NCBI GenBank assembly: GCA_963514005.1
Contig: OY740816.1
Coordinates: 25,172,001-25,236,000, forward strand
Length of the DNA stretch: 64,000 nucleotides
Origin: Raja brachyura
Lineage: Eukaryota
Reading direction: 5' to 3'
Numbering within the stretch: position 1 is the first letter of the stretch; the number at the start of each line of letters is the position of its first letter. Positions 4,001 through 63,710 of the stretch are shown here, one piece after another. Under the pieces are notes generated by a model. It saw only the letters and a program-made list of their open reading frames with translations, was not told where the DNA came from and did no database searches. The position numbers and the translations under genes were made by a program.

Positions 4001-4980
4001 TTTGCTCCCAAAGTGGATAACCTCACGTTTATCCACATTAAACTGCATGGCGGATGCAGTTTAATGTGGATAAATGTGAGGTTATCCACTTTGGGAGCAA
4101 AAACAGGAATGCAGATTACGATCTAAATGGTGTCGTTGGAAAAGGGAAAGTACAACGGGATCTGGGGGTCCTTGTTCATCAGTGGATGAAAGTAAGCATG
4201 CAGGTACAGCAGGCAGTGAAGAAAGTGAATGGCATGTTGGCCTTCATAACAAGAGGAATTGCCTATATGAGCAAAGAGGTCCTTCTGCAGTTGTATAGGG
4301 CCCTAGTGAGACCACAGCTGTGCATTTTTGAGGAAGGACATTCTTGCTATTGAGGGAGTGCAGCGTAGACTTACAAGGTTAATTCCCGGGATGGCGGGAC
4401 TGTCATATGCTGAGAGAATGGATCGACTGAGCTTGTATACTCTGGAGTTTAGAAGGATGAGAGGGGATCTTATTAAAACATATAAGATTATTAAGGATTT
4501 GGACTCGCTAAAGGTAGGAAACATATTCCCGATGTTGGAGTCCAGAACCAGGGGTCACAGTTTCAGAATAAGGGGTAAGCCATTTAGAACGGAGACGAGG
4601 AAACACTTTTTCCTCAGAGTTGTGAGTCTGTGGAATTCTCTGCCTCAGAGGGCGGTGGAGGCCGGTTCTCTGGATACTTTCAAGAGAGTGCTAGATAGGG
4701 CTCTTAAAGATAGCGGAGTCGGGAGATATGGGGAGAAGGCAGCAATGGGGTACTGATTGGGGATGATCAACCATGATCGCATTGAATGGCGGTGCTGGCT
4801 TGAAGGACCGAATGGCTTACTTCTTCTTGCGTATAGCGTGCAGAGCCTAAAGTTGTAGGACAACTTGTTCTATTTGATTGCACGCCAAGTTGATTGCATT
4901 CGTCGAAACAGGGCGGACCACGTGAAGTTTGCAATCTCCCAGCCCTGGCCTACTCCTGCACCTATTGTGTATTGTCTATT
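4001..4980 (+). mobile_element. 5'-truncated CR1 LINE (ORF2 C-terminus and 3' UTR) with 5' fold-back duplication
   Basis: ORFs 4054-4353 and 4328-4756 match the CR1 ORF2 end (MQFNVDKCEVIHFG, VQRRLTRLIPG, RMRGDLI, RTRGH); 3' UTR ends in (ctattgt)n. Confidence 0.9.
4822..4945 (-). mobile_element. HDV-ribozyme-headed short retroelement, copy 1
   Basis: Inserted in the CR1 3' UTR, TSD tggc(t/c)tact at 4813-4821 and 4946-4954; (GAA)n tail; ribozyme region 4892-4945 has mismatches in P1 and P3. Confidence 0.85.
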
Positions 4981-5324: not shown

Positions 5325-5630
5325 GGGGGCGGGGCCATGGGCTGCGTGACGCGGTGGGGAGGAGGGCCCTTGAGCATGATTGACGTACATTCATCCAATC
5401 GGTCGTCTGGGGGCGCGACTATGGGTGCGTGACGCGTTGGGGGCGGGATCTTGAGTATGATTGACGTACATTCATCCAATCAGTCGCCTGGGGGCGGGAC
5501 TATGGGTTGCGTGACGCGATGGGGGGCGGGGCCTTGAGTATGATTGACGTACATTCATCCAATCGGTCGTCTGGGGGCGGGACTATGGCTTGCGTGACGC
5601 TTCTGCATGATTGACGCGCATACATCCAAT
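5325..5630. repeat. ~82-bp promoter tandem repeat, ~3.8 copies (GC box + 2x TGACG + CCAAT per unit)
   Basis: catCCAAT recurs with CCAAT at about 5396, 5476, 5559 and 5626 (spacing ~80, 83, 67); units are near-identical. Confidence 0.92.
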
Positions 5631-6047: not shown

Positions 6048-6082
6048 GTGCGTTCCGGGCGAGGGGTTGATCAATGGAGGAG

Positions 6083-6700
6083 GGAGAGACACTAAATACT
6101 GGGGGGGGGAGAGACACTAAATATTGGGGGGGGGGGAGAGACACTAAATACTGGGGGGGGGAGAGACACTAAATATTGGGGGGAGGGAGAGACACTAAAT
6201 ACTGGGGGGTGGGAGAGACACTAAATAGTGGGGGGGGGGGAGAGACATTAAATACTGGGGGGTGGGAGAGACACTAAATACTGGGGGGGGGAGAGACACT
6301 AAATACTGGGGGGGAGAGACACTAAATACTGGGGGGGGGAGAGACACTAAATAGTGGGGGGGGAGAGACACTAAATACTGGGGGGTGGGAGAGACACTAA
6401 ATACTGGGGGGGGGGAGAGACACTAAATACTGGGGGGTGGGAGAGACACTAAATACTGGGGGGTGGGAGAGACACTAAATACTGGGGGGTGGGAGAGACA
6501 CTAAATATTGGGGGTGGGAGAGACACTAAATATTGGGGGTGGGAGAGACACTAAATATTGGGGGGGGAGAGACACTAAATATTGGGGGGGAGAGACACTA
6601 AATACTGGGGGGTGGGAGAGCTACTAAATACTCGGGGGAGGGAGAGACACTAAATACTGGGGGGTGGGAGGGACACTAAATACTGGGGGGTGGGAGAGAC
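6083..6700 (+). repeat. G-rich minisatellite, ~24 units of ~25-27 bp (GGAGAGACACTAAATACTGGGGGG(T)G)
   Basis: Directly visible; G-run length varies between units. Confidence 0.97.
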
Positions 6701-7400
6701 AAAATGCTGGAGTAACTCAGCGGGTCAGGCAGCATTTCTGGAGAGAAGGAATGGGTGATGCTTAGGGTCGAGACTTTTCAGACAGAGTCAGGGGAGAGGG
6801 AAACAGCTATTGAAGGGTAAGGTGTGAAAACGACAGATCAAAGGTGATGATTAAGAAATGTAGAATGGTTCATTTCACAGGTAGACACAAGATGCTGGAG
6901 TAACTCAGCGGGACAAGCAGCAACTCTGGAGAGAAGGAATGGGTGATGTTTAGGGTTGAGACCCTTCTTCAGAATTCCTTCTCTTCAGAGATGCTGCCTA
7001 CCCTGCTGAGTTACTCCAGCATTTTGTGTCTACTTTTGATTTAAACCAGCATCTGCAGTTCTTTCCTACACATAGATTGGTTCGTTATTGACTATGGCGA
7101 AGGTGACAAGAAGGCATACAATCATAAAAATTAATCAGTAGGACAGTGAAACAAGTTGGAGAACTAGGGTGAGAGAGGGATGGAGAGAAAGGGAACGCCA
7201 CAGTTACTTGAAGTTAGAGAAATCAATATTCATACTGCTGCATTGTAAGCTTCCCAAGTGAAATATGAGGTGCTGATCCTCCAATTTACATTGGGTCTCA
7301 CTCTGGCAATGGAGGGGGCCCAGGACAGAAAGGTCAGAATAGGAATGGGAAGGGGAGTTAAAGTGTTCAGCAACCGGGAGATTATGCAGGCTTAGGCAAA
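6696..7400 (-). mobile_element. Penelope-like element 3' end: GIY-YIG endonuclease C-terminus plus pLTR
   Basis: ORF 7204-7446 ends PVAEHFNSPSHS..DLSVLG..HCQSE..KLEDQHLIFHLGSLQ.SSMNIDFSNFK, typical of the PLE GIY-YIG tail; followed on the minus strand by the pLTR repeat with a decayed hammerhead core (~6755-6781). Confidence 0.8.
6875..7072. mobile_element. Inverted (hairpin) pLTR insertion nested in the Penelope fragment
   Basis: gtagacacaagatgctggagtaactcagc ... gctgagttactccagcattttgtgtctac; flanked by imperfect direct repeats tagaatggttcatt (6861-6874) and tagattggttcgtt (7073-7086). Confidence 0.75.
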
Positions 7401-12437: not shown

Positions 12438-13865
12438 TTTAGAAACATAGAAACATAGAAATTAGGTACAGGAGTAGGCCATTCGGCCCTTCGAGCCTGC
12501 ACCGCCATTCAATATGATCATGGATGATCATCCAACTCAGTATCCCGTACCTGCCTTCTCTCCATACCCTCTGATCCCCTTAGCCACAAGGGCCACATCT
12601 AACTCCCTCTTAAATATAGCCAATGAACTGGCCTCAACTACCCTCTGTGGCAGAGAGATCCAGAGACCCACCACTCTCTGTGTGAAAAAAGTCCTTCTCA
12701 TCTCGGTCCTAAAGGATTTCCCCCTTATCCTTAAGCTGTGACCCCTTGTCCTGGACCTCCCCAACATTGGGAACAATCTTCGTGCATCTAGCCTGTCCAA
12801 GCCCTTAAGAATTTTGTACGTTTCTATAAGATCCCCTCTCAATCTCCTAAATTCTAGAGAGTATAAACTGAGTCTATGCAGTCTTTGTTCATAAGACAGT
12901 CCTGACATCCCAGGAATCAGTCTGGTGAACCTTCTCTGCACTCCCTCTATGGCAATAATGTCCTTCCTCAGATTTGGAGACCAGAACTGTACGCAATACT
13001 CCAGGTGTGGCCTCACCAAGACCCTATACAACTGAAGTAGAACCTCCCTGCTCCTATGCTCAAATCCTTTTGCTATGAAAGCTAACATACCATTCGCTTT
13101 CTTCACTGCCTGCTGTACCTGCATGCCTACTTTCAATGACTGGTGTACCATGACTACCAGGTCGCTCTGCATCTCCCCTTTTCCTAATCGGCCTCCATTT
13201 AGATAATAGTCTGTTTTCCTATTTTTGCCACCAAAGTGGATAACCTCACATTTATCCACATTATACTGCATCTGCCAAACATTTGCCCACTCACCCAGCC
13301 TATCCAAGTCACCTTGCAGTCTCCTAGCATCCTCCTCACAGCTAACACTGCCCCCCAGCTTAGTGTCATCCGCAAACTTGGAGATATTGCCTTCAATTCC
13401 CTCATCCAGATCATTAATGTATATTGTAAATAGCTGGGGTCCCAGCACTGAGCCCTGCGGTACCCCACTAGTCACTGCCTGCCATTGTGAAAACGACCCG
13501 TTTACTCCTACTCTTTGCTTCCTGTTTGCCAGCCAGTTCTCTATCCACATCAATACTGAACCCCCAATGCCATATGCTTTAAGTTTATATACTAATCTCT
13601 TATGTGGGACCTTGTCGAAAGCCTTCTGGAAGTCCAGATACACCACATCCACTGGTTCTCCCCTATCCACGCTACTAGTTACATCCTCGAAAAATTCCAC
13701 AAGATTCGTCAGACATGATTTACCTTTCGTAAATCCATGCTGACTTTGTCCAATGATTTCACCACTTTCCAAATGTGCTGCTATCCCATCTTTAATAACT
13801 GACTCTAGCAGTTTCCCCACTACCGATGTTAGACTAACTGGTCTTTAATTCCCCGTTTTCTCTCT
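12438..13865 (-). mobile_element. Young 5'-truncated CR1 LINE with a 427-codon open RT region
   Basis: ORF 12537-13820 has QHGF, YLDFQKAFDKV, SGVPQGSVLGP and KFADD; (tttctatg)n tail; just upstream the NYRP motif carries an in-frame TAA. Confidence 0.97.
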
Positions 13866-22985: not shown

Positions 22986-24513
22986 CAATTTTACTGTATC
23001 TCAGTTCAATCAACCAAAATAAACCAATACTAATTCCTTCTAGAATCTTTTCCAGGTTACACCAATATAATATTGTGGGAGCAGTATTTAGTATGATGTA
23101 GTCAATAGCTGCAGCTGTACAACACAGCCACACCATAACTAATATTGATTTTCAAGAAAGTTAGCTTAGCATGGGTTAGGCCCTGTCACCCATAAATGTA
23201 TGACATTGGATCCATAATTGCAAAGGCTGAAACTCCCAATCCAGTTCTTGGTTTCGGTGAGACATTTCACAAGAGCTTACCCAGAAACAAAGACGTAGTT
23301 GAGCAAATTCAACTTGTCATTGTTGTGAGCCCTTGGGAGGAAAAAAAGTGAAAATTACGCCCTATTGTCCACATACCGCCTTCATTTTTCAAATCTAATG
23401 CCTATTACAATCATGAATTTATCGTGGAGGTTGAATGCCCTTGTGGTGAGCAGCTCGTCCCATTTGCAAACGTTGTACTCACTAAATACCCCGTTAGCCC
23501 ATGTACAATCAAATACACTGATGAATGTTTACAATCAGAAAAACAATATAGAATAGTGGGGCTGTTCTGTAAGTGGCCTTCTGACTTCTGATCTCTGTAT
23601 TCAATGGAATAAATGGACAGTAGCTGCACATTATATCTTGTTCATGTGGTATAGTGTTAGCCAGCTCTCTAACACTATAGCACATTTTGTCATGGTAATT
23701 TACAATTATAGATCTAATGTCATATGTTTAGACTGCCATTCTCAACTCCTACAGTTCCCGTGAAGTTGCTGTGGATTTGTGTAACCATTGACTTTAAGAG
23801 AAATCTGTGTGAACCCTTCTGTGATCTTTGAGTGGCATTTCTTAAGCAACATGGCATGAAGCATAGACTGCTGTCCCGCTGTTTGACATTTTGAAGTCTT
23901 ATTGTAACATTGTGATCAACTACACATTTTTAAAGGCATCTAGGATCACCGACTTCTCCTTAGAGGATCATAGTTTAAAGGCATCACACTATTGCTGCAG
24001 AATTTTAGAGGAAAACCTGCCTTCATTTTGAGTTACTATTATAAGGCTTTGAACCATCTGTACAAGTTTATTATTGTTGTCAGCATTAAATCAGTATGCC
24101 TCGAGGGATCCTGATAATAACAGGCTGCCTTACTCCTCAAAGTAATCTGCAAACTTCAAATAACCATATTTTGTGTCATCTTGGATTGCCCTAATTAGGC
24201 TCAATGACTTCCTCTTTGAACAGTAGCATGAGATGATGAGAAATTGGTAGCAGAGCGGTTCAACAGTTAATGCTGCAATGTTGCAGCTGCTGTAACCCGA
24301 GTTCGATCCTGACCTCTGGTGCTGCCTTTGTGTAGTTTGCATGTTCTCATTGTGATTGCATGGATTTCCCCCCCACGTGAACTGGTTATTTCCAACATTC
24401 CTAACGATTCTTCCCCTCTGTTATCAGGTTTCTGAATGGTCTTTCCATAAACTAGGGTCCTGTTTGATTAACCTCCATTCCATTGTGGATATTGAACTTT
24501 GTCTTAGGGAGCT

Positions 24514-24650
24514 CCTTCTTCTTGCGTATGGCGTGCACAGCCTAAAGTTGTAAGACACCTTGTTCTGTTTGATCTTCTGTTTGTGCATGCCAGGTTGATT
24601 GCATTCGTTGAAACAAGGTGGACCACGTGAAGGTTGCAATCTCCCACCCC
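24514..24650 (-). mobile_element. HDV-ribozyme-headed short retroelement, copy 2 (best preserved)
   Basis: TSD tcttaggga(g/a)ct at 24502-24513 and 24651-24662; (GAA)n tail; 5' end GGGGTGG abuts the TSD. Confidence 0.9.
24597..24650 (-). ncRNA. Minimal HDV-like (CPEB3-type) self-cleaving ribozyme, 54 nt
   Basis: P1 GGGGUGG/CCACCUU (G1-U wobble), J1/2 GA, P2 GAUUGCA/UGCAAUC, P3 ACC/GGU, L3 UUCACGU, J1/4 GU, P4 reduced to UUCAA, J4/2 CGAA with the catalytic C. Confidence 0.85.
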
Positions 24651-25439
24651 TCTTAGGGAACTGATTCACTACAATGCTGAGTACTATATTCTATACTCTG
24701 TATCTTCCCTTTTATTCATCTATTGTACTTGAGTTTGAACTGACTGTATCTGCTGTATGCATGGTTTATCCGAACTGTTTGGATAGCATGCAAAACAGGC
24801 ATTTCACTGTACTGAAAGCTTAGCATGTGACAATAAGATATGGCAGCGTGATAAACTGCTGTTGCCCTCTCACATGGCCGTCACCCTAAATCTTCTACCA
24901 CCAACTTGTGCTAGATATAATTTTCAGTAATCAGTTAACCTACCAGCCAGCAAATCTTTGGGATCTAAGAAGAAACCCACGTAGCCACAGGAGATCATGC
25001 AGACTCCACACAAACAACATTGGAAGTCCTGATTAAACTTGGGTTGCTGGAGCTGCGAGGCATTAGCAATACCTGATGCACCAATGTGATGTGTTCCGTG
25101 GTGTAGTAACAAAGGAAGTGGACCAACATCAGACAAGAATGAAACGTTACACTGATGATGCACATGGTGCATCCATTCATAAGGACACATCCTGTACTTT
25201 GTAGTAACAGCTATACCAGGAGCCTAATGCATGTGGCTGATTTGATAAGGAAGGGTAGAGAACAGCATGCAGTCAGTTAAGTTAAATGGCTTCAGCATCA
25301 TGAACACAAATGGATGAACAACAAACATTAATGGAACAAAATGTTAGATTGCAGGTGTTTTGAAAGTTCACAACTATAGCTGACATCTGACCACTGGAAA
25401 ACTGCCCTCTTAGGATTCTTCAATCAGCTTGTCCTTGAT

Positions 25440-63074: not shown

Positions 63075-63710
63075 GGCCTTTATAAATCAGAGCATTGAAT
63101 AGAGGAGTAGGGAAGTAATGTTAAAATTGTACAAGGCATTGGTAAGACCAATTCTGGAGTATGGTGTACAATTTTGGTCGGCTAATTATAGGAAGGATGT
63201 CAACAAAATAGAGAGAGTACAGAGGAGATTTACTAGAATGTTGCCTGGGTTCCAGCAACTAAGTTACAGAGAAAGGTTGAACAAGTTAGGTCTTTATTCT
63301 TTGGAGCGCAGAAGGTTAAGGGGGGACTTGATTGAAGTCTTTAAAATGATGAAAGGGATAGACAGAGTTGACGTGGATAAGCTTTTCCCATTGAGGGTAG
63401 GGAAGATTCAAACAAGAGGGCATGACATGAGAATTAAGGGACAGAAGTTTAGGGGTAACATGAGGGGGAACTTCTTTACTCAGAGAGTGGTGGCTGTGTG
63501 GAATGATCTTCCAGCAGAAGTGGTGGAGGCAAGATCGATTTTAACATTTAAAAGTAAAGTGGATAGGTATATGGACGGGAAGGGAATGGAGGGGTATGGT
63601 CTGATTGCAGGTAGATGGGACTAGGGGAAAATAAATGGTCGGCACGGACTGGAAGGGCCGAGAAGGCCTGTTTCCGTGCTGTAATTGTTATATGGTTATA
63701 TGGTTATATC
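63075..63710 (+). mobile_element. 5'-truncated CR1 LINE (second subfamily)
   Basis: ORF 63118-63624 LYKALVRPILEY.VQFW..ERVQRRFTRM..RRLRGDLIEVFK..TRGH; tail (tatggtta)n. Confidence 0.92.

Follow-up and report, generated by a model that had tools for sequence, protein, structure and literature searches.

This report concerns a 64,000-nt stretch of the Raja brachyura genome (contig OY740816.1, positions 25,172,001 to 25,236,000), referred to below as the window. On its minus strand, at 24650-24514, the window carries a 137-nt element that is interspersed in this 2.7-Gb genome. The first 54 nt of the element (24650-24597) form a motif with the architecture of ribozymes of the HDV-like kind (HDV, hepatitis delta virus), in which a short linker takes the place of the P4 helix. 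The HDV-like fold is well supported, and the element is a bipartite internal deletion of a 3.1-kb long interspersed nuclear element (LINE), which we call family F. Our overall reading, to which we assign a probability of roughly 0.78, is that the 54-mer serves a non-autonomous retroelement, descended from a Vingi-like LINE, as its 5'-processing ribozyme, with self-cleavage as the predicted activity. Coordinates are positions in the window, and nucleotide numbers count from G1 (24650) along the minus strand. Loci collected for comparison have numbers preceded by L, and the related families have letters.

The HDV-like fold

In the window copy, P1 consists of 7 bp beginning with the pair G1-U36, the joining segment J1/2 has 2 nt, P2 has 7 bp, and P3 has 3 bp. 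The remaining parts are loop L3 (UUCACGU), the dinucleotide GU, a 5-nt linker that replaces P4, the J4/2 sequence CGAA and the 3' strand of P2. This is exactly the order of elements that a first, sequence-only reading of the window had described. The individual parts, with the evidence for each, are as follows.

24597-24650, minus strand: HDV-like ribozyme fold lacking P4; the element begins with G1, and the flanks of other copies diverge directly after 24650 in 4 of 4 runs
24644-24650, minus strand: 5' strand of P1, nt 1-7 (parse and covariation)
24635-24641, minus strand: 5' strand of P2, nt 10-16 (parse and covariation)
24622-24634, minus strand: P3 (3 bp) and the 7-nt L3, nt 17-29 (parse, family-level heads and covariation)
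24615-24621, minus strand: 3' strand of P1, nt 30-36, with minority bases A32 and U35 in the window copy (comparison of copies and reads)
24608-24614, minus strand: GU of P1.1 (pair C22-G37) and the 5-nt linker replacing P4 (C22-G37 in 12/12 heads; UUCNA linker also in family J)
24604-24607, minus strand: J4/2, with the putative catalytic C at 24607 (alignment of 12 heads)
24597-24603, minus strand: 3' strand of P2, nt 48-54 (parse and covariation)

Both the order and the pairing of the nested double pseudoknot of HDV-like ribozymes (P1, P2, P3 and P1.1) are present in the 54-mer. So are a P1 of 6 to 7 bp starting at G1, usually with a G-U pair, a 3-bp P3 and a 7-nt L3; P1 helices of 6 or 7 bp have been reported for HDV-like ribozymes (PMC4908430). 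The linker in place of P4 has 5 nt in the 137-nt element, in its parent LINE and in a second short family, J, described below.

Covariation, which the sequence-only reading had named as a means of checking the motif, supports the fold. In an unconstrained alignment of 12 heads, that is, of the 5' ends of the element and related LINEs, 94.9% of 216 cells are paired, and both sides have changed in 11 of the 18 pairs. The covariation score is 0.628, a value reached by none of 500 shuffles and not approached by slid controls (at most 0.13); the relatedness of the heads inflates the shuffle test, and the changes nonetheless separate whole families. Alignment A3 leaves out families A-E, and alignment A1, in which families A and E are misaligned, is not counted. 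J4/2 starts with a C of the catalytic type, nearly invariant in the 12 heads, and both of its A residues are invariant. When helices are fitted separately for each family, 233 of 237 cells are canonical among 15 family-level heads, including families H and I, parsed with a shifted 6-bp P1, and families D and C with poorly sampled 5' ends. Frequent read variants within the 54 nt fall on J1/2, on position 2 of J4/2, on the linker, or on P1 positions that still pair.

One could suppose that these parts came together by chance within a SINE (short interspersed nuclear element) derived from tRNA, or within a derivative of an RTE element. One RTE family of this genome does end in (GAA)n, and the nested fold of the entire 137-nt element is unremarkable (z from 0.55 to -1.35, scores that are uninformative for a pseudoknot). 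Nevertheless, this explanation is refuted: the RTE 3' end differs, the element matches no tRNA, 5S or 7SL RNA, its direct parent has been found, and the fold covaries. A strict descriptor of the fold, moreover, finds 16 sites (some counted twice) in the window and loci L061-L241, all of them heads of the 137-nt element or related LINEs, and none in 1.58 Mb of shuffled sequence.

A bipartite derivative of a Vingi-like LINE

That the motif is borne by a transposable element, as the sequence-only reading had proposed, is borne out by its position at the head of the 137-nt element. The element and its other copies in the window are laid out as follows.

24651-24662, minus strand: 5' target-site duplication, 12 nt with one mismatch, abutting G1
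24578-24650, minus strand: segment shared with the 5' end of the parent LINE family F, nt 1-73 (LINE heads)
24582-24592, minus strand: 5' arm of the end-to-end helix, nt 59-69
24553-24577, minus strand: middle of ~25 nt, not matched to the LINE by BLAST
24514-24552, minus strand: segment shared with the 3' end of family F, ending in a (GAA)n tail (24523-24514); at 24552, contigs of run X1 continue as LINE sequence
24529-24539, minus strand: 3' arm of the end-to-end helix, nt 112-122
24502-24513, minus strand: 3' target-site duplication
4820-4945, minus strand: second copy, with one mismatch each in P1 and P3
50533-50673, minus strand: third copy, with the catalytic C changed to U and a mismatch in P3
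57651-57782, minus strand: fourth copy, with P1 damaged or truncated

The head is present in 29 of 30 loci collected by means of the 3' half, one of which is the window copy. Target-site duplications of 9-18 nt (median, 11) occur in 49 of the 58 copies that passed our script filters for this test, and 45 of the 49 abut G1. In four public sequencing runs with four organism labels (245 reads in one; 36, 12 and 304 contigs in the others), flanks diverge right after the position equivalent to 24650, with an agreement of 0.33-0.43. Based on the sampled densities (1 copy per 200-kb random sample, and ~8 in 0.8 Mb of partly overlapping loci collected for other reasons), there are on the order of 10^4 copies in the genome. 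The element contains no open reading frame (ORF). At the window locus it interrupts an older repeat, whose flanks (24401-24470 and 24656-24725) are joined in other copies among reads and contigs.

The core was weakly matched ahead of an endonuclease ORF, and from there we reached a group of LINEs that have one ORF and 3.0-3.2 kb. HDV-like heads occur in ~10 related families of this genome. Nucleotides 1-73 of the element run into the APE ORF in 10 heads of family F, and query nucleotides 99-139 match the LINE 3' end in L217, L220 and L227 and partly in L219 and L226. Because nt 1-73 and the last ~40 nt equal the two ends of the LINE, the 137-nt element is a bipartite internal deletion of family F. 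The P4-less head is already present in this parent, and every family with a recovered 5' end (A-I) starts with an HDV-like fold, its P4 region ranging from 5 to 46 nt.

The LINE proteins carry Pfam APE and reverse transcriptase (RT) domains, and relatives have ~970-1000 amino acids. RNase H is absent from 10 ORF pieces of three families, and PF00075 is found in 0 of 120 listed relatives. The same layout, one compact ORF that encodes APE and RT but lacks RNase H, is described for Vingi elements (PMC13708176). In a quick RT tree, all of the families group in a single clade (support 84), separate from Nimb, CR1 and RTE and shared with lizard, lancelet, echinoderm (sea-urchin) and insect proteins. 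Since the tree contained no named Vingi or Ingi reference, we call the parent "Vingi-like", a label that rests on architecture and hosts.

Other candidate parents were rejected. The RTE family has a (GAA)n tail and a different 3' end, the Nimb/I family found among the top endonuclease matches has two ORFs and no head, and CR1-type and other long ORFs have no head. The RTE family, which also has a 3' hairpin, is represented by L061-L072 and L125-L132, and the two-ORF Nimb/I-type family, which has long open frames, by L093-L112.

Several arrangements in the collected loci are worth recording. The short element at L220:402-540 has inserted into the 5' region of a copy of the LINE from which it derives, and others occur within or next to family A, B and C copies (L161, L166, L167). 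Family C copies at L163-L165, L180 and L181 share several kb of flank, so they multiplied within a larger repeated unit. Finally, many LINE heads are inverted relative to the adjacent truncated LINE body; in such an insertion, the ribozyme and ~20 nt have the LINE body on the other strand just upstream (L206, L208, L209, L211, L212, L221, L226, L230, L233, L234 and L239-L241). It is as if a second priming event landed just downstream of the ribozyme, which leaves near-solo ribozymes in the genome.

Ribozyme-headed, non-autonomous LINE derivatives are known, namely the R2 short internally deleted elements (SIDEs), NARTc of L1Tc, and bipartite RTE/Ingi/Vingi elements (PMC5786205, PMC6765202). 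These have in common with the 137-nt element that only the LINE ends are kept, that an HDV-like fold stands at the exact 5' end, and that mobilization is in trans. By the tests applied, the 137-nt element belongs to this bipartite kind: it has the ends of an autonomous LINE, no ORF, no head derived from a small RNA, target-site duplications and a simple-repeat tail. Its head would act in the manner of those of R2 SIDEs and NARTc.

Family J is a second short element, of ~140-170 nt, of which 10 copies were collected (L242-L251); further sites are L004:649-806 and L064:1696-1849. Its P1, P2 and P3 differ from those of the 137-nt element, with both sides different at 10 of 18 pairs, and it has the same P4-less layout with the 5-nt UUCNA linker. 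P1 of family J is mostly 6 bp, inside the known range (PMC4908430). The family ends in (GAA)n, is flanked by target-site duplications and has an end-to-end helix of its own, and its head passes the Rfam cut-off for the CPEB3 ribozyme.

The end-to-end helix joins the segment following the ribozyme to that preceding the tail. In the 137-nt element, the helix is formed by nt 59-69 and nt 112-122 (11 bp in L056), and it accounts for the retention of 73 rather than 54 nt. Across six LINE families, the 25 nt that follow the ribozyme find their best partner in the last 25 nt of their own family; the cognate assignment ranks first of 720 permutations by both minimum and mean energy, in a test made on the same six families whose inspection had suggested the helix. 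Taken singly, families A (p = 0.38) and E (p = 0.07) are not significant. Family J was found after the helix had been proposed, and 6 of 8 of its copies have the helix at shuffle p<0.05, the other two being non-significant. The helix may serve in protein loading or in completing reverse transcription.

Predicted self-cleavage

We propose that source copies would have no promoter of their own and would be read through from host transcripts. The head would fold as a P4-less double pseudoknot and cut just 5' of G1, with C44 as general acid and with Mg2+, and the RNA released by cleavage would have a structured 5' end at an exact position. The post-ribozyme segment would pair with the pre-tail segment, and in this way both ends may be offered to the LINE protein. 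Copying of the ~137 nt up to G1 would then follow by target-primed reverse transcription in trans, and most copies would decay after insertion.

Activity of the source lineages is suggested by comparison of the sequences, because G1-U, C22-G37, and the C and A of J4/2 have been kept while the helices turned over. The exact start at G1 points the same way, as do P4-less relatives that are active in vitro (PMC10879173). These relatives, the minimal HDV-like and theta ribozymes, share with the 54-mer the absence of P4, a catalytic C in first position of J4/2, and a G1 that bounds the processed RNA. They differ in provenance: ~99% are from gut phages and they often follow tRNAs (PMC10879173), whereas the heads studied here belong to a vertebrate retroelement and its parent LINE. 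Theta ribozymes lie in phage genomes and cleave at tRNA 3' ends; the 54-mer has variable flanks and no tRNA match. A 25-letter core pattern found no match in viral contigs.

Several observations weigh against this reading. In a poly(A) RNA run (X21), 245 reads, plus 39 one base further, run through G1 into mixed flanks. No pile-up of read starts at G1 is listed in this run, in which the strand is uncertain and the library does not preserve 5' ends; reads cover the element in both directions. The read-through speaks against efficient cleavage of the majority of genomic copies in those transcripts and says little about source copies. It is weak evidence because the strand is uncertain, because only 9 of 30 tail-anchored copies have the fold intact (every pair and core base), and because ordinary RNA-seq loses 5' ends. 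In addition, J1/2 has only 2 nt, and another HDV-like ribozyme was little active with a 1-nt spacer (PMC4908430), although the CPEB3 geometry of 3 nt and 6 bp results once the outer P2 pair is opened. The linker can also form a 2-bp UUCG hairpin that would trap G37 and C44, a state 1.3-1.6 kcal/mol less stable than the open form. Rfam gives no match at gathering score in the whole window, and around the window copy it gives three matches that we judge to be chance. The search with ribozyme models that had been proposed along with the motif did not recover it: no such model matches the window copy, including the CPEB3 model RF00622 at E<=10. The name Vingi-like stands without a tree of named Vingi references, and in the quick tree family F lies in a different branch from the CPEB3-like family G.

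Some of these observations would suit a different account, in which the fold is real but has served, since the loss of P4, mainly as a non-catalytic 5' module, with the exact start set by transcription initiation. Such a module might be an internal promoter, like Pr77 of L1Tc, a protein-binding site, a 5' protection or a translation aid. Uncut reads and the lack of a listed pile-up are as expected under this account, as are the short J1/2 and the possible inhibitory hairpin, and the L1Tc head is both promoter and ribozyme (PMC3383444). However, G1-U, C22-G37, and the C and A of J4/2 have persisted in families whose helices have otherwise changed, and a DNA promoter would preserve sequence rather than pairing. 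Moreover, the P4-less layout occurs in two families with different helices, and its relatives cleave in vitro (PMC10879173). We therefore regard a non-catalytic module as quite unlikely, and prefer a 5'-processing ribozyme.

The sequence-only reading considered the window copy the best candidate for activity. It was right about the family consensus, since reads of run X21 give majorities of G32 (357/500), C35 (466/501) and G42 (390/480). The window copy departs from these at three places (A32, U35 and A42), by which it loses the wobble U5-G32 and gains G2-U35 beside the G1-U pair, the latter being the extra G-U that had been noted in P1. It also keeps the core nucleotides, as claimed, and is the only intact one of the four copies in the window, all of which are on the minus strand. 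Nevertheless, its P1 and P3 have a combined energy of -10.0 kcal/mol, compared with -12.4 and -12.8 kcal/mol in the majority-type copies L088 and L034. In addition, G1-G4 are predicted to be drawn into a hairpin with its upstream flank. With a second G-U near the cleavage pair, a weaker P1 and P3, and a competing hairpin, the window copy is not the best candidate.

A further question was whether the U-A and U-G alternatives in P1 reflect a change that preserves pairing or decay of CpG. A32 occurs in 10 of 10 family F heads, with the neighboring CpG kept in 7 of 10, whereas G32 predominates among the short-element reads; we conclude that this is a real difference between lineages that preserves the pair.

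The density of the element in the window is several times the sampled average. The shared orientation of the four copies, which is not significant, might mean selection against sense ribozymes in a host transcript; no gene was identified. The window also contains CR1-type reverse-transcriptase fragments (12537-13844, minus strand; 63103-63624, plus strand) and two tandem arrays with 83-nt and 26-nt units (5325-5600 and 6082-6701).

Relation to the CPEB3 ribozyme and significance

The sequence-only reading saw a CPEB3-like core in the motif and, from this, relevance to the origin of CPEB3-type ribozymes. The core is indeed shared: the 54-mer and the RF00622 consensus have in common L3, a single strong P1.1 pair, the GU, CGAA and a P1 helix that is G-rich at its base. 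For this family the link is otherwise weaker, because the sequences of P1, P2 and P3 are different, P4 is absent, and there is no Rfam score; L088 and L056 likewise have no RF00622 match at gathering score. The element is also multicopy and mobile, whereas the CPEB3 ribozyme occupies one conserved intronic site (intron 2 of CPEB3) and is reported to be absent, and to lack an outgroup, outside mammals (PMC8233481). The link is much stronger in sister families, whose heads pass the RF00622 cut-off, and it is there that the suggested relevance to CPEB3 holds.

An RF00622 search of the genome (gathering threshold, 35 bits) gave 41 matches among 59 scored candidates, 32 of them over the cut-off and the best at 65.8 bits, and no matches in 14 control genomes. 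The top 10 loci and 24 further ones that we examined are heads of families G, H, I and J. Among 10 copies of family G tested, the head runs into the LINE ORF in 4 and borders an inverted LINE piece in another 5; such a piece also lies next to the heads of family H (4 of 6) and family I (2 of 5). The family H majority, in which G1 is not well sampled, agrees with the Rfam consensus at ~58 of 67 positions, including both P4 strands; the two differ in a compensated P2 pair, a wobble in P1, single bases in L3 and in J1/2, and the L4 loop. The single H copies L206 and L208 match at 54 and 55 of 67 positions. Among metagenome contigs, 5 of 5 pattern matches pass the cut-off (51-66.5 bits). One of these, L253, stands directly before an intact ORF of the LINE clade, and L252 and L254-L256 have no adjacent ORF. 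Among the latter (L254:3482-3560, L255, L252, L256), two pairs share flanks, and each may be a fixed single locus in a eukaryote.

The resemblance could instead be convergence forced by the HDV catalytic core, the mammalian ribozyme then having no retroelement ancestry. The 137-nt family, for example, matches the Rfam consensus at only 27 of 49 non-P4 positions (counted by eye), most of them in the core, and identity of the outer four P4 pairs of family H has, by rough estimate, a ~2% probability by chance over ~6 CPEB3-like families. We consider convergence unlikely, because four families and all five metagenome loci pass the cut-off, and because the agreement of family H extends to a compensated P2 pair and both P4 strands, with L254 matching at 46 of 49 positions outside P4. 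The matching positions in P1, P2, P3 and P4 are free to vary, to judge by the sister families, and the G heads and L253 that lead into LINE ORFs, like the H heads beside inverted LINE fragments, tie these sequences to a retroelement. By sequence comparison, this LINE clade is the probable source of the mammalian CPEB3 ribozyme, as a captured head that would be an old insertion retained in the intron. No single family in this genome is the CPEB3 donor. Multicopy HDV-like ribozymes have also been described from lamprey, lancelet and sea urchin (Webb et al. 2009, via PMC8256844 and PMC13635239), hosts in which the same LINE clade occurs, and these ribozymes may be heads of this clade.

As far as the literature was searched, ribozymes on Vingi-like LINEs, P4-less heads in a vertebrate, sequence-level homology to the CPEB3 ribozyme, and a helix joining post-ribozyme and pre-tail segments that covaries across families are new. 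The search found no link of Vingi to ribozymes or of CPEB3 to retroelements, within a partial coverage that left several primary papers, supplements, patents and Repbase/Dfam notes outside. Because of this coverage, and because Ingi, the sister clade, is known to carry ribozymes (PMC5786205), part of the novelty may already be in print.

The CPEB3 ribozyme, described as the sole HDV-like ribozyme in mammals, affects memory in mice (PMC10919898), and the same LINE clade has left traces in the human genome as X12_LINE (PMC5753468). Mobile near-copies at the fronts of LINEs make the origin of the CPEB3 ribozyme directly testable, and they are relevant to the proposal that HDV acquired its ribozyme from a host transcript. 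Ribozymes without P4 had been regarded as almost confined to gut phages (PMC10879173); two abundant vertebrate families now provide thousands of natural variants. Vingi elements are in development for RNA-templated gene insertion, in which about one quarter of insertions are truncated (PMC13708176), and a 54-nt self-trimming head with an end-to-end helix offers concrete hypotheses for the function of Vingi untranslated regions. Overall, we think it rather likely that animals hold, in their Vingi-type LINEs, a large reservoir of HDV-like ribozymes, some of them P4-less, and that the CPEB3 ribozyme is a domesticated head, probably acquired through the frequent inverted-head insertion. The heads would then be the missing outgroup for the evolution of the CPEB3 ribozyme, and the end-to-end helix would be a cis signal for full-length mobilization of 140-170-nt elements.
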